Shown: piece by piece, positions 1,190 to 23,639 of the stretch
Layout: each line of letters begins with the position of its first letter
How positions within the stretch are numbered: the first letter of the stretch is position 1
Assembly (NCBI GenBank): GCA_003214175.1
Contig: QCLZ01000003.1
Span: 1 to 24,000 of the forward strand
From: Prochlorococcus sp. AG-418-I20
GTDB taxonomy: Bacteria; Cyanobacteriota; Cyanobacteriia; PCC-6307; Cyanobiaceae
Length of the DNA: 24,000 nt
Direction of reading: 5' to 3'
Notes under the pieces: generated by a model
What the model saw: only the letters and a program-made list of their open reading frames with translations
Told to the model about the DNA's origin: nothing
The model's database searches: none
Translations under genes and position numbers: made by a program

Positions 1190-1236
1190 TCGAGGCGACA
1201 GGATTCGAACCTGCGACCTAGTGCTCCCAAAGCACT
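1190..1236 (-). repeat. partial tRNA-Pro(UGG) 3' segment (att-type repeat), copy a
   Basis: TCGAGGCGACAGGATTCGAACCTGCGACCTAGTGCTCCCAAAGCACT. The reverse complement gives anticodon loop TTTGGGA, T-arm GCAGG-TTCGAAT-CCTGT and an acceptor 3' strand. There is no 5' half. Confidence 0.9.
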
Positions 1237-1365
1237 CGATCAGCAAATTGCGACAGTACCCATGAGAACGAAGTGAGGCTATGACTTTAGTTTCAAGAAT
1301 CAATATCCATTATGAGTCTCAGGAATTGTTTTATATGTAGCAAAGTATCGCAAAGTTATGCATTT

Positions 1366-1387
1366 GATCGCCCGAGGATCGCCCGCA
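1366..1387. repeat. segment-private tandem repeat GATCGCCCGAG|GATCGCCCGCA
   Basis: 11-bp period with a GC-rich core. The same GATCGCCC tandem recurs at 3247-3268 at the other end of this segment. Confidence 0.8.
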
Positions 1388-1390
1388 AGC

Positions 1391-1417
1391 GAGCTAGTGC
1401 TCTATGGTCACTAGGTC
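1391..1417. other. symmetric att-core-like site GAGCTAGTGC-TCTATGG-TCACTAGGTC
   Basis: Two 10-bp inverted arms flank a 7-bp spacer. The left arm equals the tRNA fragment core GACCTAGTGC with 1 mismatch. Confidence 0.65.
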
Positions 1418-1440
1418 TTATTAATCCATATTTGATTTTG

Positions 1441-1475
1441 TGAACAGTCGATCTGAATTAGAGGTTTACTCCTCT
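1441..1475 (+). promoter_or_regulatory. island leader element copy P2 (variant TGAACAGTCGATC + TGAATT + hairpin AGAGG/CCTCT)
   Basis: Same architecture as the other copies. An ATG at 1476 abuts the stem and opens a 34-codon ORF that overlaps the convergent gene end. Confidence 0.5.
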
Positions 1476-1563
1476 ATGTTTTATCGACTATCAATCATAA
1501 TTAATTTAGCGGTGCACGAATTAAGCGTTTCATATATTCAGAATAAATGGTTGTTTTTTGGAT

Positions 1564-1953
1564 CTAGTGCCAATTATTAATTGCACAAATAGCTTTGAGG
1601 TGCTTCTTAGTTCTCCAAAGACAATGAACCAATCTGCCACTTGGATTTTGGTATGGTTTTAGTCCTTGGTGCAATCCATTTTTAATTCGTTCTAAGTAAA
1701 AAGATGACCTTTCTTTTTGATAAGGATAAACAGTAAGACTTTTGACTAATCCTTTATTACTAGGATCTATTTCCACATCACATGCTCCTAAAATTTCCCA
1801 TTTAATACCCTCTCCAAGTCCACCTACTCCATATTGATTTGATGTCATTTGAAGACATGTAGTTTCTATAGGTTTTGAGAAATCAACTGGGTGAGCAACA
1901 ACAGGTACTAAAAATTGAGAAATGATATGGCTTAGAAATAAGAAGCGTTTCAT
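1564..1953 (-). CDS. secreted hypothetical protein, 129 aa
   Basis: ATG start. The N-terminus MKRFLFLSHIISQFLVPVVAHP is signal-peptide-like, and the 5' nucleotides ATGAAACGCTT are shared with the secreted-protein family. Confidence 0.7.
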   Translation of the reverse strand: MKRFLFLSHIISQFLVPVVAHPVDFSKPIETTCLQMTSNQYGVGGLGEGIKWEILGACDVEIDPSNKGLVKSLTVYPYQKERSSFYLERIKNGLHQGLKPYQNPSGRLVHCLWRTKKHLKAICAINNWH

Positions 1954-2037
1954 TTGATATTCAAATCTTTAGATATTGATTATCATTTTGATACGTTTTG
2001 CATTCAATATTCCGAATTGTCAGCTTAAGTAAAATTA

Positions 2038-2802
2038 ATGGAAATTCTATTTTTAATTATTTGTTTTATTTTTCTTTTTATCCTAGCTGCATTCTCTGAG
2101 GATATGGGATTCTGGGTAGGCACAAAGCAGGTAGCTTTAGAAGAAAACATTAAAAAAAATATTAAAAATATTCTAAAAAATAATAAAGAAAATTCTAGAA
2201 AATCTTATAGAAATCAAAAAAGATTAGTAGGAAACATAAGGAATATTGAAGAGTTAGACGAAATTATGTTTGAGACTGCAAAAAGATTTGCAAGTAGTTT
2301 AGAGGTTAGTAATCAAGATATTCCTTTACTTGGAAATGCTCTAGGGATTGGATATCTACTAAATACCTATTTCACTTTTTTTATTAGAAGTAAAGTTTTT
2401 CCGGAAGATATTTCTCTGGCAGAGGATTTCTACTCAAAAGATAGAGACTTAGTAATGGGTATATCAACTTTTTTTTTAATAGCTAAAAAGAATTATAAAA
2501 AATCTGGATCAACTCTCGCTTTAGGGGTTGAGGGTCTAAAACATGTTTCTTTTTTGATGCATAAGTGCTCAAAGAAAAATCTTGAAGATAGACTTTGCGA
2601 TAAATCTGAGATAATTCCTTTGAAAGAATTATTCAGAGCTTATTCAAGCGAATATGAAAAAGGTGTTGAGACATTAAAGGCAACATATAAAATGATTGAT
2701 ATCAATAGTGAATATGAAAGATACTCAGATGATTTCAACAAATTGCTTTTAGATTTGAAATTATTCGTATTTGATAGTCCATATGATCAAACTAATTATT
2801 AA
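2038..2802 (+). CDS. hypothetical protein with N-terminal TM anchor, 254 aa
   Basis: Long ATG ORF with a hydrophobic N-terminus (ILFLIICFIFLFILAAF). No domain recognised. Confidence 0.7.
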   Translation: MEILFLIICFIFLFILAAFSEDMGFWVGTKQVALEENIKKNIKNILKNNKENSRKSYRNQKRLVGNIRNIEELDEIMFETAKRFASSLEVSNQDIPLLGNALGIGYLLNTYFTFFIRSKVFPEDISLAEDFYSKDRDLVMGISTFFLIAKKNYKKSGSTLALGVEGLKHVSFLMHKCSKKNLEDRLCDKSEIIPLKELFRAYSSEYEKGVETLKATYKMIDINSEYERYSDDFNKLLLDLKLFVFDSPYDQTNY

Positions 2803-2831
2803 ATAAACTAGATATAAAATACTTAGAGGAT

Positions 2832-3068
2832 TTAGCTCCAAAGAGATGAAAAGCCAATCACAATAATCGCAATTTGCAAAACCCCAGCAGATAAAGCCAG
2901 AAGTTTATTACCTCCATCAATCCCATTCTTTTCAACATCACCTCTGACCATTTCAGTAACGAACCAACTAACTATTACAAGTAATATAAATCCACCTAAT
3001 TGACTATCACCCCAGTATTTATATATACCCACTAGAGCAAAAATTCCTGAAAAAAATCCTGTCCCCAT
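2832..3068 (-). CDS. small multi-pass membrane protein, 78 aa
   Basis: ATG ORF with about three hydrophobic stretches. Confidence 0.6.
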   Translation of the reverse strand: MGTGFFSGIFALVGIYKYWGDSQLGGFILLVIVSWFVTEMVRGDVEKNGIDGGNKLLALSAGVLQIAIIVIGFSSLWS

Positions 3069-3246
3069 TTATTAAGTAATCAACTTTAAACTTTTAATTA
3101 ATTTATAGCGATATTGGCATTATTGGTAATGCCTGCAATATAAGTTATTGTCCTCTCAAATAAATAAAATGTTTACTACTTGCACAATCCAATCTTTGAT
3201 AGAAGAGGGCGATGCACCATGCAAAGCTATGCAAGGTATTGCAAAT

Positions 3247-3268
3247 GATCGCCCAGAGATCGCCCAGA
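3247..3268. repeat. segment-private tandem repeat GATCGCCCAGA x2
   Basis: Perfect 11-bp tandem. It is the partner of 1366-1387, and the upstream CAAAG..TATGCAA context is also shared. Confidence 0.8.
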
Positions 3269-3295
3269 GAGTATTTAAGAATCGTGAGAAGTCAA

Positions 3296-3340
3296 TCGGG
3301 GCGACAGGATTCGAACCTGCGACCTAGTGCTCCCAAAGCA
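3296..3340 (-). repeat. partial tRNA-Pro(UGG) 3' segment, copy b
   Basis: TCGGGGCGACAGGATTCGAACCTGCGACCTAGTGCTCCCAAAGCA. Confidence 0.9.
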
Positions 3341-3467
3341 TTCGATCTATTATTTGAGATTATAAAACAAAACTAAGCTATGACTAGGTTATAACCAAGA
3401 GAGTAGAACGAGTTTGAGTCTCAATATTGTACAAAGTTATAGTTCTATATACAAAATATATAACCTC

Positions 3468-3490
3468 AGCTCCTCCTTTAGCTCCCCCGG
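3468..3490. repeat. segment-private tandem repeat AGCTCCTCCTT-T-AGCTCCCCCGG
   Basis: The partner ACTCCCCCTAC|AGCTCCCCTTT lies at 7644-7665 at the other end of the segment. Confidence 0.7.
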
Positions 3491-3493
3491 AGT

Positions 3494-3520
3494 GACCTAG
3501 TGCCTCATGTTAACTAGGTC
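3494..3520. other. symmetric att-core-like site GACCTAGTGC-CTCATGT-TAACTAGGTC
   Basis: 10-bp inverted arms flank a 7-bp spacer, located 4 nt after the tandem repeat. Confidence 0.7.
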
Positions 3521-3554
3521 GAAGAAATGATGTTTTTAACTCTGGACCATACAC

Positions 3555-3710
3555 TTAAATTGAAGAACAAAAGTGATGAAATCTTTGATCATCAACGTCA
3601 GCCATTAAATCATATTCCTCTAATTTTTTTGTAATCCTTTTATATTCAATATCATTTACAAAATGAGCTATATATTTTTCTAAAAAATTTATATTGATTT
3701 TTTGTTTCAT
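3555..3710 (-). CDS. hypothetical 51-aa protein
   Basis: Hand-found ATG..TAA ORF (MKQKININFLEKYIAHFVNDIEYKRITKKLEEYDLMADVDDQRFHHFCSSI) with no homology evidence. Confidence 0.35.
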   Translation of the reverse strand: MKQKININFLEKYIAHFVNDIEYKRITKKLEEYDLMADVDDQRFHHFCSSI

Positions 3711-3925
3711 TAATATCCTTTATTTATTAATAGCTATAAATTCTCTTTTTAACTTTTATTGAATAATTGTTCCTTATAAATTGAGAAAATCTAAAAAAGT
3801 CTAATAAGTACAGCTTATAGAGGGTATGAGAGTAAGTAATTATACTCACACTTATGCTTTTCAGTCATTAGATTTGTTTCAAGATTGCATTAGGAAGCGT
3901 CTTAGCTAAATAGCCAACCAAACAA

Positions 3926-4060
3926 ATGAACGAAACAAAAACAGTTGAGAAGGAAAAAATCGTAGCTGAGAAGCTCAACGGTAGATTTGCGATGATTGGG
4001 TTTATTGCCCTTATAGGTGCATATCTAACAACAGGACAAATTATTCCAGGGTTTGTATAA
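3926..4060 (+). CDS. hli: high-light-inducible protein (HLIP, one-helix CAB/ELIP/HLIP family), 44 aa
   Basis: Translation MNETKTVEKEKIVAEKLNGRFAMIGFIALIGAYLTTGQIIPGFV carries the HLIP signature E-x-x-NGR-x-AM-x-GF and a TGQIIPG tail. Confidence 0.9.
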   Translation: MNETKTVEKEKIVAEKLNGRFAMIGFIALIGAYLTTGQIIPGFV

Positions 4061-4168
4061 ATGGATTTTTCATCTAAAAGACAAGGTTATGTACCCCTTA
4101 AGATGGTTCCTTACATATTCTTTGTTGCAGTTGTTTTAAGCATCACAACAACAAATACATTCGTATAG
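4061..4168 (+). CDS. 35-aa TM peptide immediately after hli
   Basis: Its ATG abuts the hli stop codon. Sequence MDFSSKRQGYVPLKMVPYIFFVAVVLSITTTNTFV, followed by a terminator. Confidence 0.4.
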   Translation: MDFSSKRQGYVPLKMVPYIFFVAVVLSITTTNTFV

Positions 4169-4193
4169 TTTTTAAAAACTTGCATTGTCATGA

Positions 4194-4227
4194 AAGTCAG
4201 CTGGTAGGGATACAGGCTGACTTTTTT
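4194..4227 (+). terminator. rho-independent terminator of the hli operon
   Basis: Stem AAGTCAGC / GCTGACTT with a 14-nt loop, followed by a T-run. Confidence 0.7.
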
Positions 4228-4328
4228 AATGGTAGTTGAGCAATTGACTTGGGAGAATCAAATTAAAACCAATAATTAAAAAATAGAGAATATTAAATTA
4301 AATCTTTACTTTTTGAACCGCTATCAAC

Positions 4329-4469
4329 TTATTCCAAATCAGTATCAAATTCAGGTCTAAACTTAGTAAGTTTAGAAATTTCTAATTTTAGTTCCTCTTC
4401 GGAATTAAATCCTAGTTCTCTGTAGGATTCTAGACCTAGTGAGGCTTCTCTTTTTAAAATTATTTTCAT
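4329..4469 (-). CDS. hypothetical acidic 46-aa protein
   Basis: Hand-found ATG..TAA ORF (MKIILKREASLGLESYRELGFNSEEELKLEISKLTKFRPEFDTDLE). Confidence 0.35.
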   Translation of the reverse strand: MKIILKREASLGLESYRELGFNSEEELKLEISKLTKFRPEFDTDLE

Positions 4470-4604
4470 ATCCCATAAGTTTCTAAATTAATACTAGTTT
4501 TTAATAATTTAATTAAGTTACTAAGTTGTTGATTCAAGACCGTTTGACCAATTTATTAATTGACAATCTATTTACAATGTATAAATGAACCCCTTCTTTT
4601 ATTT

Positions 4605-4736
4605 ATGAAAGAAACAGGATTTAACTTAACTCAAGGAATTGCTTTGCTACTTTTGAAAACATTAAACTTGCCTGTTAATTACGTTCTAAATTTAATAATT
4701 TACATAACTAACCCTAGAAATAATATTGGTTATTAA
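4605..4736 (+). CDS. hypothetical 43-aa peptide
   Basis: ATG ORF downstream of TTGACA(4560)-N-TATAAA, a diverged relative of the leader element. Confidence 0.3.
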   Translation: MKETGFNLTQGIALLLLKTLNLPVNYVLNLIIYITNPRNNIGY

Positions 4737-4764
4737 TTATGCCTCTCGAAGTGAAAAAAATTAA

Positions 4765-5058
4765 ATGAAGGTTCTCGAAGATATCGCATCCGATTTAGAA
4801 CAAAGAATTACTGATGCTTCCATAGGTAATTCTTCTAGGCCAACTATCTTATTCTGTGGCTGCGACCCTCGACTTAAAAAGGATTTGCATAAACGTGCAA
4901 AGCGTATTGGCTTTAATCCATCTTACTCAATAAAACATCCATCTATTAAAGTGGAATTGCAGAATTTTGGGAATAGAAAAATAGAAAGAGATAGGTTTAA
5001 GACAATAACTATGGACTATGAAAACTTTGAATTTATTTGTAGGTATCTAGAGAGTTAA
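4765..5058 (+). CDS. hypothetical protein, 97 aa
   Basis: ATG ORF with balanced composition. No motif recognised. Confidence 0.6.
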   Translation: MKVLEDIASDLEQRITDASIGNSSRPTILFCGCDPRLKKDLHKRAKRIGFNPSYSIKHPSIKVELQNFGNRKIERDRFKTITMDYENFEFICRYLES

Positions 5059-5285
5059 GCATCTTTCAAAGATCTATTTTTGTTCTTGTGTTATTGTTAA
5101 TAAATCTCAGGTAGAGATAAGACTAAGCAATATTGACCAGCTAAAGAATTTTTGAAAAAGAATCCCACCTGCAAGAGTCAAATACTTTCTGATAAACAAA
5201 TTGTGTTGATCTATCCCATAGAGCGAATGCAAAGAATAAAAATCACTTATTAAGCCTGTGTATATAAAACTAAAAAAGTAAACTA

Positions 5286-7688: not shown

Positions 7689-7713
7689 AAAAAAGCGAGT
7701 TGGGAGACTCGCT
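7689..7713 (-). terminator. terminator travelling with the tRNA-Pro fragment
   Basis: On the minus strand, directly 3' of fragment c, the stem AGCGAGT/ACTCGCT is followed by a T-run. Confidence 0.65.
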
Positions 7714-7735: not shown

Positions 7736-7787
7736 TCGGGGCGACAGGATTCGAACCTGCGACCTAGTGCCCCCAAATCACTAGTTC
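7736..7787 (-). repeat. partial tRNA-Pro 3' segment, copy c (variant, fully symmetric core)
   Basis: TCGGGGCGACAGGATTCGAACCTGCGACCTAGTGC-CCCCAAA-TCACTAGTTC. The loop is altered and the right arm is extended into a 10-bp inverted repeat. Confidence 0.85.
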
Positions 7788-7881: not shown

Positions 7882-7903
7882 TTTTCCCTAAATTTTCCCT
7901 AAA
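7882..7903. repeat. segment-private tandem repeat TTTTCCCTAAA x2
   Basis: Perfect 11-bp tandem. Partner TTTTCCCTGA|TTTTTCCCTAA lies at 8505-8525. Confidence 0.8.
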
Positions 7904-7906
7904 GTT

Positions 7907-8329: not shown

Positions 8330-8504
8330 CAATATTCTTTTAGTAAATTCTAGTACTAGTTTCATATTTAATAGCCATCTGCTAATAAAGATAGCAACCA
8401 ACTATATCGATATATATAAAGGTAGGCTTATATCCTAAAAAATTCAATAAAATTCTATAAACTCTAGGGAAAAACCATAAGAAAACCCCCTAAAAAGGAG
8501 TTCA

Positions 8505-8525
8505 TTTTCCCTGATTTTTCCCTAA
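8505..8525. repeat. segment-private tandem repeat TTTTCCCTGA|TTTTTCCCTAA
   Basis: Partner of 7882-7903. An inverted copy TAGGGAAAAA lies at 8465-8474. Confidence 0.75.
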
Positions 8526-8554: not shown

Positions 8555-8590
8555 TCGAGGATACATGATTCGAACCTGCGACCTAGTGCT
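8555..8590 (-). repeat. degenerate partial tRNA-Pro 3' segment, copy j
   Basis: TCGAGGATACATGATTCGAACCTGCGACCTAGTGCT. The T-arm and core are retained, the acceptor part has decayed, and the anticodon loop is replaced by TTTTATT. Confidence 0.7.
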
Positions 8591-10662: not shown

Positions 10663-10684
10663 ATTTGTTGGCTATTTGTTGGCC
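10663..10684. repeat. tandem repeat ATTTGTTGGCT|ATTTGTTGGCC
   Basis: 11-bp tandem in the same position relative to the tRNA flank as the others. An inverted copy GCCAACAAG lies at 10692-10700. I found no partner at the left end of this segment. Confidence 0.7.
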
Positions 10685-10709: not shown

Positions 10710-10736
10710 TAAAAAAGCGAGTCTGGGTAACTCGCT
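10710..10736 (-). terminator. terminator travelling with the tRNA-Pro fragment
   Basis: On the minus strand 3' of fragment d, the stem AGCGAG/CTCGCT is followed by a T-run. Confidence 0.6.
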
Positions 10737-10758: not shown

Positions 10759-10805
10759 TCGGGGCGACAGTATTCGAACCTGCGACCTAGTGCTCCCAAA
10801 GCACT
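10759..10805 (-). repeat. partial tRNA-Pro(UGG) 3' segment, copy d
   Basis: TCGGGGCGACAGTATTCGAACCTGCGACCTAGTGCTCCCAAAGCACT, with one substitution in the T-arm. Confidence 0.9.
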
Positions 10806-10893
10806 TAATAGCCGTAGTTCAGCACTAGGTTTTAAAGCTATATCTAATTATTTGCTTGGTTCTGCGAAGTTTGTCGTGACAAATAAAGTAATA

Positions 10894-10915
10894 TTTGTCC
10901 GCAATTTGTCCGCAA
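10894..10915. repeat. segment-private tandem repeat TTTGTCCGCAA x2
   Basis: Perfect 11-bp tandem. The identical tandem recurs at 13330-13351 at the other end of the segment. A partial third copy TTTGTCGTGAC lies at 10870. Confidence 0.85.
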
Positions 10916-11239
10916 AATATTAGCTAAGAAAAATTTGACTAGCATTTTATACAAGATATTGATCTATTTAAATCAATAAGGATTTGAGATATGGAATATA
11001 GTTTTGGGGAATTACGAGCAAAATTTTGGAATCATTTGATTACTTCGAATATCTAAATTCAATATCATTTCATCCACCTGCAATGATAATTACTACCCTA
11101 GTATTCTTTTATATAAGAAGAAAAATTTTATTAGCTGGCAAAAAACATTAGCAATCTATTTAATATTTATATTTTTGAATGAGTCAAAAATTAAATAAAC
11201 AAAGCAAGTAATAAAAACAATTACATATATAGATTCCAT

Positions 11240-11608
11240 TTAACTTACCGTTGTTATTGAACTGCTTAATCCATAAGTGAGAAAAATAAAACTTGCAAAA
11301 GTAACTCCTATCATTATTGTTGTGTAGAGTTTATTTAGTTTGAAATTATTACTTGCAGATGAAAAGTCTGCAACAACAAAACTTTTCATTGAATATTTAT
11401 CTCTATTTATGAAATTATTGCTCTTTACCAAATTGCCTAAAATTGGATCTGTAGCAACTTTTATTTCTTGATTGATAACAGAATTTAAACCTTTATCTTC
11501 ATTGAAGAATCTTGGAAACATGTATGCATGCCATAAAGCTATTATTGCCACCCAAAAAACTACACTAACTCCTGCAAAACCAAAAAGTAAAAATCTAAAG
11601 GTTTCCAT
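11240..11608 (-). CDS. membrane protein, 122 aa
   Basis: ATG ORF with N- and C-terminal TM helices. Confidence 0.6.
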   Translation of the reverse strand: METFRFLLFGFAGVSVVFWVAIIALWHAYMFPRFFNEDKGLNSVINQEIKVATDPILGNLVKSNNFINRDKYSMKSFVVADFSSASNNFKLNKLYTTIMIGVTFASFIFLTYGLSSSITTVS

Positions 11609-11829
11609 ATTTGTTTTTTAATTAACTAAAATCTACATCAGAAAAAATATCTAAATACCGCAATCCAAAAAAATATACTTTAAATAAATCAATTAATCAT
11701 TTCATGATGTTACTAATGATTAGAAACAATGTTATTAAGGGCTTTTCTTTTAATATAAATTAATGATCAAATCAATTATTTAACTAAAAAAGACAAAATA
11801 ATAATCAAATTTATTATTACTTTTTAGAA

Positions 11830-12126
11830 ATGGATTTCAGGATTTTACTTGTTATTACACCAATAATATTCTCATGGATATTTACAGTCTTTTGGTTAGG
11901 TAGATGGGATGTATTTAGATTAACGCCACTAGGATTACCAAAGAAGGGAGTAGCTCCTTTTGAAAATTATCAAGTATGGGAAGATTCAGCATTAATTCCT
12001 GATACTGGCAGACCATCCGAAGGTTATCCAGTATTTACTGTAAGAACCGCAGCAGTTAATGCCCTAGGGATTCCAACCGTTTTCTTCCTTGGAGCAATAT
12101 TGGCAATGCAGTTTAAATCTTATTAA
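11830..12126 (+). CDS. membrane protein, 98 aa (first of tandem paralogs)
   Basis: ATG ORF. The N-terminus [29 protein letters not shown] parallels the next gene. Confidence 0.65.
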
Positions 12127-12138
12127 TAGGAAATCTTG

Positions 12139-12324
12139 ATGGATATTAGATTTTTAATTGTTGTAGCACCATTTTTAATCGCATTTTTTTATACCTTATT
12201 TTGGCTAAATAAATGGGGTGCTTTTAATTCTACGAATAATAATTTGCCAAAAAATATTTCTCTTAAAAATGAATCAATAGAACAAAATTATATTTTAGAG
12301 AATATCTTTTTAACAAAAAATTAA
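12139..12324 (+). CDS. membrane protein, 61 aa (second tandem paralog)
   Basis: The ATG at 12139 gives MDIRFLIVVAPFLIAFFYTLFWLNKWGAF, which aligns to the N-terminus of 11830-12126. The C-terminus is unrelated. Confidence 0.55.
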   Translation: MDIRFLIVVAPFLIAFFYTLFWLNKWGAFNSTNNNLPKNISLKNESIEQNYILENIFLTKN

Positions 12325-12359
12325 TCAAATTTTTCTTTCCCTTTAATTAATACCTTGTC

Positions 12360-12458
12360 ATGATTCCAATAGAACAGTATTTGTTTTTTGCAGTTTCTCT
12401 TTATGCATTTTTTTATCTTTCAATAACTATCGTAAGTACATTAATTAGTTTTTCCTAA
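12360..12458 (+). CDS. 32-aa TM micro-ORF
   Basis: Hand-found ATG..TAA ORF (MIPIEQYLFFAVSLYAFFYLSITIVSTLISFS). Confidence 0.3.
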   Translation: MIPIEQYLFFAVSLYAFFYLSITIVSTLISFS

Positions 12459-12540
12459 GTAATAACTACATAAAATATTAGACACTTATTTGTATAAAAT
12501 TAATCTTCCTGTATATAGAAACTCATTATATAAATATATA

Positions 12541-12660
12541 AGTAGATATTAGGGCAATCTACTAACCGCTAGCTTTGATAAAGCGGTTCGTAATGAGAAC
12601 CTCCCTTTGACCTCATTTTCTTTTCGCAATCTTAGAAAATGAGGTTTAAATAATTTTTAA
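12541..12660 (+). ncRNA. candidate structured RNA, copy 1 (three hairpins, terminator-like end)
   Basis: Three hairpins: AGTAGAT/ATCTACT (12541-12563), AACCGCT/AGCGGTT (12564-12588), and an 11-bp stem ACCTCATTTTC/GAAAATGAGGT (12610-12645) followed by a T-rich tail. TATAAA lies upstream. Confidence 0.45.
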
Positions 12661-12771
12661 TAGTAAGGAATATTAAAGTTAATTTTCTAAATAAATCCAG
12701 TCATTAAATTTTATTCATGGTCATGTATATTATTTACTTTTAAAAATAGAGTTTTTTCTATATAAAGAATA

Positions 12772-12885
12772 TGTAGATAATTGGCGAATCTGCAACGGTA
12801 TAGATTCCGTCTTTTGAACCTAGCCAACGAAAATATTCTTAACTACGTTTTAGTTATTTTAGTAGTTAGGAATATTTTTATTTTA
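12772..12885 (+). ncRNA. candidate structured RNA, copy 2
   Basis: Same order as copy 1: TGTAGAT/ATCTGCA (12772-12794), ACGG/CCGT (12795-12810), and a 15-bp stem AATATTCTTAACTAC/GTAGTTAGGAATATT (12832-12876) followed by a T-rich tail. TATAAA lies upstream. Confidence 0.45.
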
Positions 12886-12909
12886 AGGTTAATTTTTTCT
12901 TAAAAACAA

Positions 12910-13323
12910 ATGATCAATAAATCTCAAAAAGTATCCTCATTAGAAAATATCTACAAGAATTTGGAATCTGGAATGCCAGAAAATAAATCTATTAAAGACT
13001 ATGCTCTCCCTAATGCGAGACAGTGGTTAGGGGGAAGATATATAGCCCTATGGGTATTACCTATTTATTTAATTAGTAAAATTGCTAAATTCGCAGCTTC
13101 CTCTGCATTTATAAAACCATATTCTCCAATTAAAAATGGCCCTTCTTATAAAAGACCAGAAACTTTGTACACCTCTTTAAAAGGTGTATTTAAAGGAGAA
13201 GACCATTTAAGATTTTTTGATCATAGGTTTATCGCTATTTGGGTATTGCCTTTTGCTTTAACTGGAATTGTTTTTGAAGTGCTTTTTATATCTCCTGCTA
13301 AGAATACTTTCCCTTTCAATTAA
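12910..13323 (+). CDS. membrane protein with internal duplication, 137 aa
   Basis: ATG ORF in which RYIALWVLPIYLISKI and RFIAIWVLPFALTGIV are repeated halves. Confidence 0.55.
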   Translation: MINKSQKVSSLENIYKNLESGMPENKSIKDYALPNARQWLGGRYIALWVLPIYLISKIAKFAASSAFIKPYSPIKNGPSYKRPETLYTSLKGVFKGEDHLRFFDHRFIAIWVLPFALTGIVFEVLFISPAKNTFPFN

Positions 13324-13329
13324 GCACGT

Positions 13330-13351
13330 TTTGTCCGCAATTTGTCCGCAA
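13330..13351. repeat. segment-private tandem repeat TTTGTCCGCAA x2
   Basis: Identical to 10894-10915. It sits just before the terminator-like flank of fragment e. Confidence 0.85.
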
Positions 13352-13422
13352 TCATTGAGGACAGAATTTAAGCAATAAAAAAGACAGGCTGGGAAACCTT
13401 TCTATGACTTGGATTATTAGAG

Positions 13423-13469
13423 TCGGGGCGACAGGATTCGAACCTGCGACCTAGTGCTCCCAAAGCACT
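13423..13469 (-). repeat. partial tRNA-Pro(UGG) 3' segment, copy e
   Basis: TCGGGGCGACAGGATTCGAACCTGCGACCTAGTGCTCCCAAAGCACT. Confidence 0.9.
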
Positions 13470-13556: not shown

Positions 13557-13578
13557 ATTTGTCGGCGATTTGTCGGCG
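13557..13578. repeat. segment-private tandem repeat ATTTGTCGGCG x2
   Basis: Perfect 11-bp tandem. Partner TTTGTCGGCT|TTTTGTCGGCT lies at 15357-15377. Confidence 0.85.
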
Positions 13579-13691
13579 ATTTGAAAGTAATTTTCGGTTA
13601 ATTTAAATTTTAGAACCAATTAAAAGATATTTAATTGACATCGCATTCATATTTGTAAAATATGGATTTATACCGATAGGCAAAAAAGAGA

Positions 13692-15356: not shown

Positions 15357-15377
15357 TTTGTCGGCTTTTTGTCGGCT
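15357..15377. repeat. segment-private tandem repeat TTTGTCGGCT|TTTTGTCGGCT
   Basis: Partner of 13557-13578. Confidence 0.8.
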
Positions 15378-15401
15378 GATGTAACCGACATAATTTTCAA
15401 T

Positions 15402-15449: not shown

Positions 15450-15499
15450 TAGGGGCGACAGGATTCGAACCTGCGACCTAGTGCTCCCAAAGCACCCGC
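15450..15499 (-). repeat. partial tRNA-Pro(UGG) 3' segment, copy f (long form)
   Basis: TAGGGGCGACAGGATTCGAACCTGCGACCTAGTGCTCCCAAAGCACCCGC. Identity extends through the whole anticodon stem. Confidence 0.9.
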
Positions 15500-15623
15500 T
15501 ACGCAAAATGCGACAGCCCCCATGAGAAACAAGTGAGGCTATGGCTTATTAGTTGATATTAAATGAAAATTGATGAGTCTTAAAAATTAGCAAGATATAG
15601 CAAGGTGGTGCATAAATAAGCAA

Positions 15624-15645
15624 AATCTCGCTCAAATCTCGCTCA
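15624..15645. repeat. tandem repeat AATCTCGCTCA x2
   Basis: Perfect 11-bp tandem, 5 nt before the symmetric core. No identical partner was found. Confidence 0.75.
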
Positions 15646-15697: not shown

Positions 15698-15741
15698 GAT
15701 TGACAGTCGATCTAACATAGAGGGATAAAACCCTTTTTATA
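15698..15741 (+). promoter_or_regulatory. island leader element copy P5 (GATTGACAGTCGATC + TAACAT + AGAGGG-ataaaa-CCCTTT)
   Basis: Canonical copy. The ATG of the lipoprotein gene follows at 15742. Confidence 0.75.
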
Positions 15742-15969
15742 ATGAAAAGAATTTATTTATTTCCTCTTTTTCTTCTACTAATAACAGGCTGTGAATATCT
15801 TTCTTTATCTCAAGCTAAAAAAGCTTGTTATCGATGGGGTCTTAATAGTGATATTGAACGTGGTAATTGGGATTGTAAACTTAACAAATCTAATATGGAA
15901 TACCTATTAATTAATGAATACTCTGACGATGGCATATACGATCCTAAAGTAATAAAAAAATTTAAATAA
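15742..15969 (+). CDS. small lipoprotein, 75 aa
   Basis: MKRIYLFPLFLLLITGC carries a lipobox (LITGC). Confidence 0.7.
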   Translation: MKRIYLFPLFLLLITGCEYLSLSQAKKACYRWGLNSDIERGNWDCKLNKSNMEYLLINEYSDDGIYDPKVIKKFK

Positions 15970-19438: not shown

Positions 19439-19672
19439 TTGATTAAGCTCTTATTCGTCCCAACAACAAACTTGTTATTAAGAAAAACGGAATATTTGAA
19501 TTGGAAAGATTGCCTTAAGGAGACACAAGCAGAAAGAAGTTACCAACCTATTAAAAGGGGGTATAGAGATAATAATATCTCTGCAGTTGTTCAACTACAA
19601 AAGGAGTATTGCGGGAGAAGACCAAATGAATGGAAGTGGCAATTAGAGACATACTACAAACCATCAAAATAA
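19439..19672 (+). CDS. hypothetical protein, 77 aa, possibly 5'-truncated
   Basis: TTG start. The frame stays open upstream through a TM-like stretch (GSGGLLGVLSIPVGIYLIYF) without any start codon. Confidence 0.35.
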   Translation: MIKLLFVPTTNLLLRKTEYLNWKDCLKETQAERSYQPIKRGYRDNNISAVVQLQKEYCGRRPNEWKWQLETYYKPSK

Positions 19673-19760
19673 TGGAATTGGGAATAGGTTCTTTTTAGAC
19701 AATTTAATGTGGGTCATCTGAAAGCACGATCATTTTGGAAGAATACTATTAGATGGTATT

Positions 19761-19808
19761 TAGCGATTAAGCCTACTAGGTATATCAAAGCTATACAAAT
19801 AATCGCTA
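19761..19808 (+). repeat. 48-bp perfect direct repeat, copy 1 (flanks the protease cassette)
   Basis: TAGCGATTAAGCCTACTAGGTATATCAAAGCTATACAAATAATCGCTA, identical to 20825-20872. Confidence 0.9.
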
Positions 19809-19822
19809 AATAATAGCTAGAG
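19801..19822. repeat. segment-private tandem repeat AATCGCTAAAT|AATAGCTAGAG
   Basis: Partner of 20865-20886. It is followed by the half-core GACCTAGTGT at 19826-19835. Confidence 0.65.
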
Positions 19823-19933
19823 GTAGACCTAGTGTCTTTAATGGGGTTTTATGTAATTTATGACTTAGTAAAAATGAAAACTATAATTTGATAATATTTT
19901 AAAAAACGAACTAAACTAACTAAAGCTTTTATC

Positions 19934-20827
19934 TTGGTTTTGAAAATCAAAAACTATCTAATATTTTTTTCTCTGATTGGTTTACTTTTGACGTTTAAAA
20001 TTAATTATTTTGGAAAAAATTCAATTTATTTTATGCCTAAAGAGTATAAAACTATAAAAAAATTAGTGGATAAAATAGCATCTAAAAATTACTTGGGCGA
20101 TAAAGAAATCCCTTTTTTTATTGGAAGTGGAAGGTATATGGAAATAAGGGCAAAAGAATTAGGTTTATGTGAAGAGGATGATTGCTGGTATTACAATAAT
20201 TTAAGTCCATATAAGAATTATAAAAATGTTGAGGGAATAAATCTTAATGAGCTTATAAAACAATCATATTTGTTCAATGGAATTGAAGCCTATGCTTGGA
20301 GAGGGATAGTTTGGTTAAGTCAATCTACTTTTCGAACTTATGGAAAAGATAAAAAATTTCTAAACTGTACTATTGGTCATGAATTATCTCATGTGATTTT
20401 TGATGATCATATTGAGCAGAGTATTAAACTATCAAATTCTTTAAAAGAAATAGAGAATCAAAATAAAAAAGATTCAAGCAGTAAAACACAAAAAGAAGTA
20501 AAAGAAAATATAAGACTAAAATTAAGTAGAGAATCTGAAAAGATAGCTGATATTAATGCCGCAAAAATGATTATTAATGCAGGATATCCTAAAGAAACTT
20601 GTATAGATGAATTAATCTTCCTCACTCAATCATCAAAGTTAGATGCTGATACTGAAACTGATTCAACTCATCCAGGTTTTATTGAGCGCATTGCCTCACT
20701 TGAAGAATTCATAGATAAATATGATCTAAATAAAGAGATTACAGAATTTAAGCCTTACAAGTGGACATGGAGTTATGACAGTACCTCTAAATTATTAAAG
20801 TTTAAACCTGAACCTAGCGATAACTAG
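19934..20827 (+). CDS. HExxH zinc metallopeptidase, M48-like, 297 aa
   Basis: N-terminal TM helix, GHELSH, and a downstream ESEKIADINAAKMI motif (E-x-x-AD with third-ligand spacing) as in M48 peptidases. The start codon is TTG. Confidence 0.7.
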   Translation: MVLKIKNYLIFFSLIGLLLTFKINYFGKNSIYFMPKEYKTIKKLVDKIASKNYLGDKEIPFFIGSGRYMEIRAKELGLCEEDDCWYYNNLSPYKNYKNVEGINLNELIKQSYLFNGIEAYAWRGIVWLSQSTFRTYGKDKKFLNCTIGHELSHVIFDDHIEQSIKLSNSLKEIENQNKKDSSSKTQKEVKENIRLKLSRESEKIADINAAKMIINAGYPKETCIDELIFLTQSSKLDADTETDSTHPGFIERIASLEEFIDKYDLNKEITEFKPYKWTWSYDSTSKLLKFKPEPSDN

Positions 20828-20872
20828 CGATTAAGCCTACTAGGTATATCAAAGCTATACAAATAATCGCTA
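20825..20872 (+). repeat. 48-bp perfect direct repeat, copy 2
   Basis: Identical to 19761-19808. It begins at the stop codon of the protease gene. Confidence 0.9.
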
Positions 20873-20886
20873 TTTAATCGCTATTT
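20865..20886. repeat. segment-private tandem repeat AATCGCTATTT x2
   Basis: Perfect 11-bp tandem and partner of 19801-19822. It is followed by the tRNA flank and fragment g. Confidence 0.8.
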
Positions 20887-20958
20887 GAGTTTTTAAGACA
20901 AATGAGAAATAAAAAAGGCAACCTTGGGATGGCTTCCTATGACTTGGTTTTGATTGAG

Positions 20959-21008
20959 TCGGGGCGACAGGATTCGAACCTGCGACCTAGTGCTCCCAAA
21001 GCACCCGC
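20959..21008 (-). repeat. partial tRNA-Pro(UGG) 3' segment, copy g (long form)
   Basis: TCGGGGCGACAGGATTCGAACCTGCGACCTAGTGCTCCCAAAGCACCCGC. Confidence 0.9.
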
Positions 21009-21092
21009 AAGATTAAAACTATAATTGAGACTTAAAGCTTTATCAGGCTTTTAGAGAAAAAAGTTTGGACTTATTCGGACTTATATGTTCGA

Positions 21093-21113
21093 TTTTGGGC
21101 ACTTTTTGGGCAC
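21093..21113. repeat. segment-private tandem repeat TTTTGGGCAC|TTTTTGGGCAC
   Basis: Partner TATGGGCAC|TTTTTGGGCAC lies at 22351-22370. A second tandem TTTGGACTTAT|TCGGACTTAT lies at 21064-21084. Confidence 0.8.
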
Positions 21114-21133
21114 ATAATTTAAGAAGTTATTAA

Positions 21134-21175
21134 TTGACAGTCGATCAAAAATAAGGGGCAATTCGCTCCTTTTTT
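21134..21175 (+). promoter_or_regulatory. island leader element copy P9 (TTGACAGTCGATC + AAAAAT + AGGGGC-aattc-GCTCCT + T-run)
   Basis: Both arms of the hairpin differ from consensus but still pair. It faces the 3' end of the convergent gene 21209-21586. Confidence 0.6.
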
Positions 21176-21208
21176 GGTGAATAGATTTTTAATTTAAGTG
21201 AATATGGG

Positions 21209-21586
21209 TTATTTCCATAAAGAAAGTCCCAAACGAATATATGGCTTAAGCTGCCAACCCCAAAAACCAAAACCAAATACTAAGAATTGAGGAAATATAC
21301 GAATTATCAATAAAATAATGCCACCTCTTCCTCTTGCTTTTGAAGAAATATTACTTATTTCATTTGAATCAAATATTGGAGGTTCATAAGTGCCCCATAA
21401 ATGGAAACCTTGCAAAACCATTATCAAACAAGAAAAGGCACCGATAATTGAGATTAATAATAGAGCTTTAGCTTTTATAGATCCTTTTTTTATAGATCCT
21501 TTTTCCATTTCTGGATCAAAAGCTCCGCAAACAATTAAAGATAGAAACCCTATTAGAGCAAACCATGCTGCAGTTGATCCGTTCAT
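21209..21586 (-). CDS. multi-pass membrane protein, 125 aa
   Basis: ATG ORF with several TM helices. It contains an in-frame 15-bp tandem duplication (KKGSI KKGSI). Confidence 0.6.
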   Translation of the reverse strand: MNGSTAAWFALIGFLSLIVCGAFDPEMEKGSIKKGSIKAKALLLISIIGAFSCLIMVLQGFHLWGTYEPPIFDSNEISNISSKARGRGGIILLIIRIFPQFLVFGFGFWGWQLKPYIRLGLSLWK

Positions 21587-21673
21587 GAATTAAGAAATAG
21601 TTATTAAGTAAAATAATCCCAATAAAGAATTTCAAATCTATAAATTTATAAATTAAGATAATTTATTTTTCAC

Positions 21674-22258
21674 TTATAAATTAATGTTATTTCTTTCCTT
21701 TTCTAACATTTTTATTAGGTATTCATATGCTTCATTAACTAGCTTAAATTCCTCTTCTGCATTTTTATCATTTTTATTTAGATCAGGATGCCATTGTCTA
21801 GCTTCTTTGCGATAAGCCTTCTTAAGCTCAGATTCATCAAAATCTTCTGAAAGATCAAAGAAGGAAATATAATCTAAATCTTCAAGACTTCTTTGCGGCC
21901 TATTTCTAATTTTATCTTGTTCATCCTTTTTCTCTTTAACCTCCTTTTTTTTAAATTTACTTTCATCTACAACATAATTTTCTTTTATAGTGATTTTTAG
22001 TTTTTTTATTGATTCTCTTAATTTTATATTCTCATAACCAACAAAAAATATTACGCCTACAAGTAAAAATTGCCCAAATTGAAGGATTGGATCTAATCTC
22101 CATCCTTGATAAAAAAGAATTAAACCGCATACCCAAAAAATTGGAACAAGAAATGGGTCATATTTAGTAGATATTGATTTCTTAAAGAAAGGAACAAAAC
22201 CAGCCAATATCAAGGCGATACCGACTATGCTGGCCCAATTTAATGAAGCGTTAAACAT
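21674..22258 (-). CDS. membrane-anchored J-domain (DnaJ-like) protein, 194 aa
   Basis: N-terminal TM helices. The C-terminal J domain reads [38 protein letters not shown] and carries the HPD motif. Confidence 0.85.
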
Positions 22259-22350
22259 ATATATATAACCCTCTAGAGAATAAGTTAAAAGTTATTTAAT
22301 TAAGGATAAATATAGAACTTATAGAAATCAATATTTTGAAAATAAATTAT

Positions 22351-22370
22351 TATGGGCACTTTTTGGGCAC
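22351..22370. repeat. segment-private tandem repeat TATGGGCAC|TTTTTGGGCAC
   Basis: Partner of 21093-21113. Confidence 0.8.
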
Positions 22371-22422
22371 TCTACTCTTTAGGTTAAATATATTATTGGC
22401 TGAGACTTACTGCTATAACTGA

Positions 22423-22472
22423 TCGGGGCGACAGGATTCGAACCTGCGACCTAGTGCTCCCAAAGCACCCGC
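22423..22472 (-). repeat. partial tRNA-Pro(UGG) 3' segment, copy h (long form)
   Basis: TCGGGGCGACAGGATTCGAACCTGCGACCTAGTGCTCCCAAAGCACCCGC. The left flank GAGACTTACTGCTATAACTGA is shared with copy a. Confidence 0.9.
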
Positions 22473-22596
22473 CCTCCAATTTGAGACAGTTACCTAAATA
22501 AACAAGTCAGGCTATTGCATGTTAGTTGCAATATCAGAGGAGTTGTGAGTCTCAAAAAGAGGTCAAAGGTATACAAAATTATCCATAAATATACAA

Positions 22597-22618
22597 TTCC
22601 TCGCCCGTTTGTCGCCCG
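22597..22618. repeat. segment-private tandem repeat TTCCTCGCCCG|TTTGTCGCCCG
   Basis: Partner ATCCTCGCCC|ATTCCTCGCCC lies at 23494-23514. It is followed by the half-core GACCTAGTAC at 22624-22633. Confidence 0.75.
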
Positions 22619-22659
22619 CCTCCGACCTAGTACTTTTATTCAAAGAGTAGAATATTATT

Positions 22660-22695
22660 GATTGACAGTCGATCTAAAATAAGAGAAAACAATAT
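22660..22695 (+). promoter_or_regulatory. island leader element copy P10 (GATTGACAGTCGATC + TAAAAT, no hairpin)
   Basis: The palindrome and TANNNT box are intact and the hairpin is absent. The ATG at 22696 lies 15 nt after the box. Confidence 0.65.
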
Positions 22696-22860
22696 ATGTT
22701 TAATCCTGATTACAAAGTTAACCCAAACGCAAAAGAGGAATTTACAGCTAAACTTTTCGATATGATTAGAGCTTATGAAGAGGATATACCTAGACTTGAG
22801 ATAGCAAAGGCACTACGTAATTTCGCAAAAATGTTGGAAAAAATAGAGGAAGGGAATTGA
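22696..22860 (+). CDS. hypothetical helical protein, 54 aa
   Basis: Hand-found ATG..TGA ORF (MFNPDYKVNPNAKEEFTAKLFDMIRAYEEDIPRLEIAKALRNFAKMLEKIEEGN), directly downstream of P10. Confidence 0.5.
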   Translation: MFNPDYKVNPNAKEEFTAKLFDMIRAYEEDIPRLEIAKALRNFAKMLEKIEEGN

Positions 22861-23087
22861 CTTTTTATCCTAAATTATCTAAAAACCTTACTCCAAAGGA
22901 TTTAAAACTTTTTTTTAAAAGTATATTTTTTCTAATATCAATAATATCAATAATATCTATTGGTATTGGAACAATATTTTTTATATATTTAAATGTTCAA
23001 TGCGAAGAAGTTTTTTTAAGAGGTCAAAATACTTTCATTTGTGGAGAGGATAGAGAAAAATTAAAAAAGAATAATTACAACTTTTAA
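22857..23087 (+). CDS. single-TM protein, 76 aa (TTG start overlapping upstream stop)
   Basis: TTGA start/stop overlap with 22696-22860. TM helix FFLISIISIISIGIGTIFFIY. Confidence 0.45.
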   Translation: MTFYPKLSKNLTPKDLKLFFKSIFFLISIISIISIGIGTIFFIYLNVQCEEVFLRGQNTFICGEDREKLKKNNYNF

Positions 23088-23118
23088 TGTATGTTTTTTA
23101 TAAGTTTAAAAAGCTAAC

Positions 23119-23289
23119 CTATTTAATAAATAGAGGTGTCATGAAAAAAGATATGATTCCAGTCGATATAAAGTAAGCGTTATTAAATTCCTTTTTACAT
23201 CCGCAATCTTTAAAGAGGAGAACACCTTGAATTGCTCCAATAATATAAACAACAATAAAGCTTATAACCCAAGCAGACAAACTATTCAT
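23119..23289 (-). CDS. two-TM peptide, 56 aa
   Basis: Hand-found ATG..TAG ORF (MNSLSAWVISFIVVYIIGAIQGVLLFKDCGCKKEFNNAYFISTGIISFFMTPLFIK). Confidence 0.4.
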   Translation of the reverse strand: MNSLSAWVISFIVVYIIGAIQGVLLFKDCGCKKEFNNAYFISTGIISFFMTPLFIK

Positions 23290-23493
23290 AATTAATACTA
23301 TTTATTTATTAAATAATAAATAAATATTAAACGTTAGCAAATAAAATTTTCTCAAGATTCACTTCTAAATGTCGAAAAAAACTGTTTACAAATAAACAAA
23401 AGATTATTGCAGTAATCTTAAATGCTTTTGAAATTGCAATAATTAGCCTTTTTTCGGGCGACAGACCCTCCAAAGTTATCCAAAGATATACAA

Positions 23494-23514
23494 ATCCTCG
23501 CCCATTCCTCGCCC
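23494..23514. repeat. segment-private tandem repeat ATCCTCGCCC|ATTCCTCGCCC
   Basis: Partner of 22597-22618. It is preceded by the shared CAAAGTTATCCAAAGATATACAA context. Confidence 0.75.
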
Positions 23515-23541
23515 GCAGAGATTTTAAGACAAATGAGAAAT

Positions 23542-23566
23542 AAAAAAGCGAGTTGGGAGACTCGCT
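23542..23566 (-). terminator. terminator travelling with the tRNA-Pro fragment
   Basis: On the minus strand 3' of fragment i, a perfect stem AGCGAGT/ACTCGCT is followed by a T-run. Confidence 0.65.
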
Positions 23567-23589
23567 ACTATGACTTGGTTTTTAAATGG

Positions 23590-23639
23590 TCGGGGCGACA
23601 GGATTCGAACCTGCGACCTAGTGCTCCCAAAGCACCCGC
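23590..23639 (-). repeat. partial tRNA-Pro(UGG) 3' segment, copy i (long form)
   Basis: TCGGGGCGACAGGATTCGAACCTGCGACCTAGTGCTCCCAAAGCACCCGC. Both flanks are homologous to those of copy g. Confidence 0.9.

Follow-up and report, generated by a model that had tools for sequence, protein, structure and literature searches.

Prochlorococcus is the most abundant photosynthesizer of the ocean, and genomic islands carry most of its flexible genes. Repeats of a tRNA-Pro segment were reportedly noticed in one of these islands by Coleman and colleagues in 2006. Here, we analyzed a stretch of 24,000 nucleotides from Prochlorococcus sp. AG-418-I20 (contig QCLZ01000003.1, positions 1 to 24,000; the whole stretch is called the window below), in which partial copies of tRNA-Pro(UGG) recur between cargo genes. 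The closest described systems are the tycheposon islands. The preprint by Hackl et al. (bioRxiv 10.1101/2020.12.28.424599) lists tRNA-Pro(tgg) as one of seven island tRNAs, which fits the way in which a preliminary description of this DNA had cited tycheposons and their target. According to the same source (10.1101/2020.12.28.424599), scattered partial tRNAs separate the elements of an island, and new elements insert at the tRNA and push the older ones outward. Tycheposons are defined there by a tyrosine or large serine recombinase together with replication genes, and the island DNA outside elements is ascribed to degenerate fragments and captured flanks. The preprint makes no mention of arm or direct repeats, nor of integrase-less units whose ends are complete. 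The window shares with tycheposon islands the organism group, the target tRNA, the accretion model, and the partial tRNA copies, and tRNA-Pro(tgg) segments bound every one of its intervals, as they flank tycheposons. It differs from them in that its units have neither a recombinase nor replication genes; hence, they are not tycheposons by definition.

Elements without integration genes are known from other accretion systems. Cis-mobilizable elements (CIMEs) keep attL and attR, the two attachment (att) sites, in the absence of integration genes, and their tandem accretion is known in streptococci. In Dehalococcoides, 15 tandem islands at ssrA are without an integration module. The window units also keep attL and attR, have no integration genes, and are stacked at a tRNA/tmRNA 3' end, which makes them the equivalent of CIMEs. 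They differ from CIMEs in being much smaller (0.2 to 5.5 kb), in having no link to conjugation, in their many arm specificities, and in being known from sequence alone. We consider it likely that the tRNA-Pro(UGG) island is a stack of such integrase-less, CIME-like units, built by serial site-specific integration. Arrays of this kind were already known; the matched 11-mer arms and the complete integrase-less cassettes described below appear to be a modest addition.

A window-wide search with a 46-nt motif gave nine matches on the plus strand with 0 to 2 mismatches (starts in Table 1) and none in shuffled sequence. Together with a remnant of 36 nt, these are the ten copies of one orientation announced by the preliminary description. 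All lie on the minus strand in the sense of the tRNA, and consecutive copies are 819 to 5,509 nt apart. ARAGORN predictions from 70+ related cyanobacterial loci, in which one tRNA-Pro(UGG) sequence (CGGGGCGTGGCGCAGCTTGGTAGCGCGGGTGCTTTGGGAGCACTAGGTCGCAGGTTCGAATCCTGTCGCCCCGA) is dominant, place the motif at positions 29 to 74 of this tRNA, and the parse given earlier into anticodon arm, variable loop, T arm, and acceptor strand was right. The organism group concerned is high-light Prochlorococcus. Four copies (15450, 20959, 22423, and 23590) extend by 4 nt to cover 50 nt (tRNA positions 25 to 74) and enter the 3' strand of the D stem. The copies are identical over 46 to 50 nt to the tRNA 3' end of the host lineage, as expected of att duplication. 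ARAGORN found no tRNA gene anywhere in the window. The earlier claim that no copy continues toward the tRNA 5' end overlooked the four copies that reach the D stem and some flanks (family U2, see below) that resemble the 5' third. In related loci (L numbers are our handles for sequences fetched for comparison), the arrays begin with a full tRNA, e.g., in L090, L052, L020, and L084.

The G+C content of the window is 30.9%, and high-light Prochlorococcus genomes, from single cells and from isolates, are 70 to 97% identical to its cargo and flanks. Scanning 35 nt of the motif against one genome per species gave at least 119 stretches, nearly all from Prochlorococcus or its Synechococcus/Cyanobium relatives. 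All ten copies of the preliminary description are confirmed, but it missed an eleventh boundary, made of an arm of the tRNA-3'-side type (233-321) and an att stub of ~12 nt (322-334). Homology blocks common to the window and 10 other genomes begin at 327, at this boundary. Mismatches in the att copies of the window grow with distance from the high-coordinate, tRNA-proximal end (rho -0.72, p=0.02), a gradient that fits new units inserting beside the tRNA.

These repeats might be suspected of being an assembly artefact, e.g., the outcome of a collapse or a chimeric joining at a tRNA fragment that recurs, and the short-read contigs of run SRR7041006 (Logan) do break at att copies. This explanation is hardly credible. 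Between att copies, the contigs of that run match the window at 100%, and complete genomes (MIT 9322, MIT 9302, and MIT 9107) as well as dozens of single-cell genomes have this architecture too. Two of these contigs, L001 (7742-9934 of the window) and L004 (20983-22428), are identical to the window and terminate inside att copies; their source is probably the same strain. Ends of this kind imply that such arrays are fragmented and under-counted in short-read assemblies. Two window proteins matched contigs of 0.8 to 2.2 kb only, which again break at att copies. An exact-protein look-up of a 538-aa autotransporter open reading frame (ORF) gave no match, and its mechanically chosen TTG start is probably wrong.

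The repeated sequences are not limited to the tRNA segment. We surveyed the window and 132 fetched loci, taken as 8-kb blocks, and found 210 att-like sites, i.e., 78 full tRNAs and 132 partial copies. The sequences on the tRNA-5' side of the partial copies, here called P arms, fall into three main families (U1, n=47; U2, n=30; U3, n=20). The P' arms, on the tRNA-3' side, are mostly of family D0, which was seen beside 81 partial and 24 full copies; D1 and D2 are the next families. D0 arms have a minus-strand hairpin and a T-run on the tRNA strand (Table 1), so that the P' arm would usually furnish a terminator for the tRNA segment. Since D0 arms recur around att copies, the repeated unit exceeds the att core. 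This joint repetition of an att copy with ~100 nt downstream of it also fits another origin, in which the tRNA 3' segment and its terminator were repeatedly duplicated or underwent unequal crossing-over, and site-specific recombination has no part. We regard this as very improbable, because the genes of different intervals are unrelated and because the arm repeats described next differ between neighbors, agree within an interval, and flank a single att beside an integrase in viral elements.

In both arms, direct repeats of 11 nt stand in tandem at set distances from att: ~110-116 nt (U1) or ~150 nt (U2) on the P side, and ~25-30, 50, or 70-76 nt on the P' side. The 11-mer sequence varies from interval to interval, and the two arms of one interval agree. 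We compared the arms in 48 intervals, defined as consecutive att pairs with tandems detectable on both sides in the window and related loci. They match at 10 or more of 11 positions in 34 (71%) of these intervals, compared with 4.5% of random cross-locus pairs. Across a single chromosomal att, the two sides reach this level in 0 of 51 cases. The window contains six intervals out of nine with arms matched at 9/11 or better, each with attL, attR, and arms but no integration genes, as in CIMEs. They are 1190 to 3296 (GGGCGATC type, 9/11), 7736 to 8555 (TTTCCCTA type, 10/11), 10759 to 13423 (TTGCGGACAAA, 11/11), 13423 to 15450 (GCCGACAAA type, 9/11), 20959 to 22423 (AGTGCCCAAAA, 11/11), and 22423 to 23590 (GGGCGAGGAAT, 10/11). 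Grouping the 11-mers into types by single-linkage clustering was uninformative, as they chained via their A-rich halves.

The same arms are found around a single att in integrase-bearing viral elements. The integrase family was identified from position and size, followed by phmmer cross-matching; Pfam searches of the commonest ORF families near att had returned cargo (PstS-like, RTX, inverse autotransporter, and GAPDH) and no integrase. In viral contigs with one partial tRNA-Pro copy beside an integrase, the tandems on the two sides match, four of them at 11/11 and one at 9/11. The ~400-aa protein adjoining the viral att is a tyrosine integrase (phrog_1, E=1.9e-14, with a borderline match to PF00589) with invariant R245, K271, R349-H350, H372, and Y381. 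Its neighbors include a sigma factor, an Erf-like annealing protein, a primase/helicase-like protein, and an exonuclease. Integrases of this family also occur beside partial tRNA-Pro copies in related loci. Searched with the integrase alignment, the viral collection yielded 20 loci, of which 17 were examined. Thirteen of the 17 have, upstream of the integrase and in this order, tandem 11-mers, a tRNA-Pro segment, and again tandem 11-mers, and their tandems are matched within an element and specific to it. A single attP with both arms adjoining the integrase is seen in viral contigs L008-L013 and L138-L147. None of the cultured phages in the phage collection has this att. Integration of a circle with such an attP leaves the two arms at opposite ends of the unit, as the chromosomal arrays show. 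The matched, interval-specific arms, being the ones seen around a single att in integrase elements, thus indicate that the intervals are whole integrated units.

Read from its sequence, this order is the attP layout of a lambda-type integrase with arm-type sites. Like lambda-type heterobivalent systems, it has a core between repeated arm sites at fixed distances and an adjoining int gene, its arms part to opposite ends on integration, and the arm sequence co-varies with the N-terminal part of the integrase. In 13 related sequences, the similarity of the 11-mers follows the identity of the N-terminal 100 aa of the integrase (rho 0.43, Mantel p=0.003) and does not correlate with that of the catalytic part (rho 0.15, p=0.10). 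As a case in point, L136 and L137 differ in their 11-mers; their integrases show 99% identity over the catalytic part and 60% over the N-terminal part. Over the two pairs L136/L137 and L134/L135, the catalytic parts are 99-100% identical and the N-terminal 100 residues 60-78%, and the 11-mers differ accordingly. These comparisons suggest that the N-terminal module of the integrase is swapped together with the arm sites. There are also differences from lambda-type systems: the sites, for which binding is predicted, are tandem 11-mers that agree in sequence and orientation between the two arms; they vary widely among close integrase relatives; and excisionase and host-factor sites were not identified here. 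In two of the viral contigs with an integrase, L141 (2742-2959) and L142 (2739-2960), the matched tandem 11-mers enclose the 5' part of tRNA-Pro, from the anticodon loop to the 5' end, in place of the 3' part. Integration at such an attP would put the element at the opposite side of the tRNA.

How do the integrase-less units relate to these elements? The most informative case is a pair from other genomes in which a cassette and an integrase-bearing relative have the same arms. L076, an integrase-bearing element, and L129, an integrase-less cassette of 974 nt, have an identical 22-mer in the P arm, and these arms are 76% identical over 151 nt. Their homology stops just beyond the 11-mers, approximately where the ATG of the L076 integrase begins. 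This indicates that cassettes keep the full noncoding arms and have other genes in the place of the integrase. One could instead regard the intervals as dead remnants, i.e., former integrase elements that lost integrase and backbone by deletion and are now reshuffled by homologous recombination only. This is possible but in our judgment unlikely, and the same tentative weight goes to the accompanying idea that att copies and arms act as portable homology. In favor of it, the distal att copies have 1 to 4 mismatches, one copy is truncated, another is a stub, and two cassettes are apparently fused. Review literature also treats CIMEs as decay products. In the "empty" interval of L016 (1296-1560), two att copies are 219 nt apart from start to start, with nothing between them but a P' arm and a P arm joined by a single run of 11-mers that they share. 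A deletion between the direct 11-mer repeats within one cassette should leave just this product; such a 219-nt interval of arms only fits the loss of content assumed for dead remnants. However, the 11-mers are mostly intact (9 to 11 of 11 per pair) and matched across 1 to 3 kb, the end of the L129/L076 homology near the integrase ATG looks like a clean replacement rather than a ragged deletion, and the same cassette stands between different neighbors in three genomes, with two blocks ending on an att edge.

The window itself is without an integrase homolog or fragment (tblastn, best E=0.21; Pfam), and Pfam recognized no replication hallmark genes (primase, helicase, or polymerase) among 20 of its ORFs. 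The domains assigned to these ORFs are DUF1330, RRM, PAP_fibrillin, autotransporter beta, SHOCT, M48 peptidase, DnaJ/Ycf66, and a cytochrome b559-like domain. Many small island ORFs have no assigned domain, and the gene set is typical of islands. The lack of an integrase would also be expected if the intervals were host DNA that had flanked a donor element, was carried along by imprecise excision, and stayed behind after precise excision of the element, a hypothesis put forward for non-element island DNA in the preprint (Hackl et al., bioRxiv 10.1101/2020.12.28.424599). The same source gives elements only ~3.6% of island DNA (10.1101/2020.12.28.424599), and 327-1189 and much of 3342-7600 are gene-by-gene mosaics rather than whole cassettes, as such an origin would allow. 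We nevertheless consider it improbable. Random flanks should not bear complete P and P' arms with common 11-mers, and matched arms characterize most window intervals and the majority of testable intervals overall, as given above. If the flank were itself an att-bounded cassette, this explanation would merge with cis-mobilization, and hence with the CIME-like stack that we favor.

Cassette 10759-13468 is present at 94% identity in L117 and L025, with different neighboring arms in both; the homologous block ends exactly on both att copies in L117 and on the 13468 end in L025. Three further blocks have one end at an att edge, i.e., 4329-7789 (L030), 14328-15495 (L052), and 21991-22472 (L070). Overall, 7 of 64 ends of cargo homology blocks lie at most 12 nt from an att edge, against 2.1% expected (p=4e-4). 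Cassette-level assortment is real, yet it is not the sole process. Regions 327-1189 and much of 3342-7600 are matched gene by gene with other genomes, and the DUF1651-like ORF of 82 aa at 7365-7613 (+), which has counterparts of 78-82% identity in different cassettes and in no fewer than five other genomes, is an example of such gene-scale shuffling. The same ORF occurs in the 974-nt L129 cassette, whose arm matches the integrase-bearing element.

Taking these observations together, the preliminary description was right to see scars of serial site-specific integration, a view strengthened by the matched interval-specific arms, the viral attP layout, and the re-use of one cassette. It was incomplete in treating the array as plain scars around cargo, since the units are integrase-less, have complete arms, and carry genes that are reshuffled at a finer scale. 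It also overrated the density, called extreme at one att copy per ~2.4 kb: att-to-att spacing in other genomes has a median of 1.8 kb (n=73, among the listed loci), and 22 of 128 related loci have at least three att copies within 8 kb. L016, L020, and L070 have four copies in 5 to 6.5 kb, and L090 and L048 have six across 7.8 kb.

These results suggest the following scenario. The window would be the distal part of the tRNA-Pro(UGG) island of high-light Prochlorococcus, with the full tRNA past its right edge, and the island would consist here of a head-to-tail stack of 0.8- to 5.5-kb units. Each unit probably arrived as a circle, and a lambda-type tyrosine integrase, presumed to bind core and arm sites, would have recombined the attP of this circle with the 46-50 nt at the 3' end of the tRNA gene. 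From their position and the correlation with the N-terminal part of the integrase, we infer that the 11-mers are the arm-type sites for its N-terminal domain. The unit would bring a replacement tRNA 3' end and, in most cases, the terminator hairpin in its P' arm; its other end would be the P arm, often closing in a promoter-like motif directed into the cargo. Newer units would insert beside the tRNA and displace their predecessors away from it; out there, att copies and arms would decay or be deleted, and neighbors would fuse. Further movement would depend on a cognate integrase acting in trans or on co-excision with an integrase-bearing neighbor.

Several observations weigh against this scenario. 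Binding of the 11-mers by the integrase is deduced from position and from a correlation in 13 related sequences. We found no integrase with any of the 11-mer types of the window, and a scan of the metagenome collection gave no attP-form or circular junction of a TTGCGGACAAA-type cassette. Among 73 att-to-att intervals in other genomes, one has an integrase fragment, a figure biased by the 8-kb loci, which exclude long elements. Three window intervals do not have matched arms: no clear tandems were detected in the arms of 3296 to 7736, the P arm of 8555 to 10759 was deleted along with part of att, and the arms of 15450 to 20959 agree at 6/11. The last of these, 5.5 kb long, is probably a fusion of at least two cassettes, as an internal remnant at 19763-19853 shares its 11-mer type with 20867-20888. 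Finally, 57 of the 64 homology-block ends lie away from att boundaries, inside cassettes, from which it follows that gene-scale recombination also shapes the island.

Table 1. Coordinates of the attachment-site copies, arms, and other features of the window
Feature	Coordinates	Strand	Remarks
Orphan tRNA-3'-side (P') arm, hairpin and A-run, then ~12-nt att stub	233..334	-	
att copy, 46 nt	1190..1235	-	tRNA-Pro positions 29-74; 1 mismatch
att copy, 46 nt	3296..3341	-	1 mismatch
att copy, 46 nt	7736..7781	-	2 mismatches
Truncated att copy, 36 nt	8555..8590	-	4 mismatches; breaks off in anticodon loop
att copy, 46 nt	10759..10804	-	1 mismatch
att copy, 46 nt	13423..13468	-	Perfect
att copy, 50 nt	15450..15499	-	tRNA positions 25-74; 1 mismatch
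att copy, 50 nt	20959..21008	-	Perfect
att copy, 50 nt	22423..22472	-	Perfect
att copy, 50 nt	23590..23639	-	Perfect
Tandem 11-mers, P arm of cassette 1190 to 3296	1366..1387	.	GGGCGATC type
Tandem 11-mers, P' arm of cassette 1190 to 3296	3249..3270	.	GGGCGATC type
Tandem 11-mers, P arm of cassette 7736 to 8555	7885..7906	.	TTTCCCTAA type
Tandem 11-mers, P' arm of cassette 7736 to 8555	8504..8525	.	
Tandem 11-mers, P' arm of interval 8555 to 10759	10663..10684	.	GCCAACAAAT type
Tandem 11-mers, P arm of cassette 10759 to 13423	10894..10915	.	TTGCGGACAAA
Tandem 11-mers, P' arm of cassette 10759 to 13423	13331..13352	.	TTGCGGACAAA
Tandem 11-mers, P arm of cassette 13423 to 15450	13562..13583	.	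CGCCGACAAA
Tandem 11-mers, P' arm of cassette 13423 to 15450	15357..15378	.	AGCCGACAAA
Tandem 11-mers, P arm of interval 15450 to 20959	15624..15645	.	GAGCGAGATTT
Internal arm remnant without att	19763..19853	.	Tandem 11-mers at 19800-19821
Tandem 11-mers, P' arm beside att 20959	20867..20888	.	TAGCGATTA type
Tandem 11-mers, P arm of cassette 20959 to 22423	21094..21115	.	AGTGCCCAAAA
Tandem 11-mers, P' arm of cassette 20959 to 22423	22350..22371	.	AGTGCCCAAAA
Tandem 11-mers, P arm of cassette 22423 to 23590	22597..22618	.	GGGCGAGGAA type
Tandem 11-mers, P' arm of cassette 22423 to 23590	23493..23514	.	GGGCGAGGAAT
Tandem 11-mers, P arm of next cassette, continuing past the window	23727..23748	.	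AATTCCCTCAA
Terminator-like hairpin and T-run, immediately downstream of att 7736 in the sense of the tRNA	7694..7713	-	Repeat family D7/D8
Terminator-like hairpins like that at 7694-7713	10716..10736; 23547..23566	-	
Promoter-like motif TTGACAGTCGATCTAA and hairpin, inner end of P arm	15700..15744	+	
Apparent decayed tRNA 5'-third remnant	15500..15520	-	With the att copy yields the Rfam match; ARAGORN negative
Cassette cargo between att 10759 and att 13423	10805..13422	+	Cytochrome b559-like small proteins and unknowns

A bolder possibility, which we put forward only tentatively, is that the cassettes are living miniature mobile units and that the island is comparable to an integron whose base is a tRNA att site and whose cassettes are addressed by a variable 11-mer arm code. 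Under this assumption, the cassettes could be moved in trans by the integrase of a tycheposon or phage with a matching N-terminal domain, which we likewise hold to be a doubtful but conceivable source of mobility. The likeness to integron arrays lies in the small recombinase-less units, mostly of a single gene to a few genes, in one orientation, and separated by recombination sites. The differences are that the boundaries here are tRNA fragments with long arms, not attC hairpins, that the window has no IntI/attI/Pc platform, and that many cassettes apparently have their own promoter-like motif. The set of IntI, attI, Pc, and attC that defines an integron was not found within the window, which does not contain the proximal end of the array. 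The window suggests that much of the island DNA outside recognizable elements consists of discrete cassettes with complete, specificity-matched arms. If so, the arrival of island genes becomes testable, the pairs of 11-mers would mark the limits of cassettes even where att has been lost, and they would predict which integrase pairs with which cassette. Living cassettes, if they exist, would account for the bulk of the Prochlorococcus island DNA so far left to imprecise excision.

The U2 family of P arms, common to the copies at 1190, 15450, and 22423, deserves a comment on its own. The ~28 nt adjacent to att resemble the 5' third of the tRNA. At 15450, the flank has 21 identities over 28 nt with 3 gaps (score 11, compared with 9.4 at the 99.9th percentile of shuffles), and because of this resemblance Rfam calls a tRNA at 15450-15520 (38.6 bits, threshold 29). 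A functional extra tRNA at 15450-15520 can be rejected on account of the non-canonical D region (10 nt where the model has 11), the two non-standard acceptor pairs, and the negative ARAGORN result. In addition, the 5' G-run is not kept across the U2 arm family. The sequence is probably a tRNA pseudogene. The chromosomal sequence that precedes the real tRNA showed no homology to the U2 arm.

The promoter-like motif mentioned above spans ~45 nt and consists of TTGACAGTCGATCTAA, a hairpin (AGAGGGATAAAACCCTCT), and a T-run. The window has 12 copies on the plus strand (at 983, 1441, 8619, 8956, 9848, 15700, 15996, 17806, 18491, 21134, 22662, and 23791), often at the inner end of a P arm, and an ATG usually follows ~43 nt past the TTGACA. 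One of these copies starts 29 nt beyond att 8555, where the tRNA-5'-side arm was deleted. In 925 kb of related loci there are 90 copies, oriented opposite to the tRNA in a ratio of 44:6. It may be a short-leader promoter, a terminator-promoter module, or a regulatory hairpin. It does not serve as the integrase promoter, as it is absent upstream of 11 of 11 integrases examined. A full-text literature search with the motif sequence found no paper. A second hairpin, CTAGTGC-loop-GCACTAGGTCGC, occurs at 1392-1414, 3495-3517, and 15652-15674, ~200 nt from three att copies. It adjoins the tandem 11-mers where these are detectable, is kept across the U2 arm family, and echoes the tRNA in its anticodon stem and variable loop. 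It might be what is left of an older att, or else a second core-type binding site.

Two small membrane proteins encoded side by side in cassette 10759 to 13423 (11830-12126 and 12136-12324, +) have similar N-termini. The first matches the cytochrome b559 (PsbE/F) domain (E=6.5e-8), which points to a photosystem-related paralog as island cargo. In the 5.5-kb interval, paralogous small proteins at 16347-16859, 18156-18446, 18534-18893, 18890-19264, and 19317 (+) share a near-identical signal peptide (MKRLLLPLLAA..PTAVNA) and have unrelated mature parts; in the copy at 19317, stop codons interrupt the reading frame.

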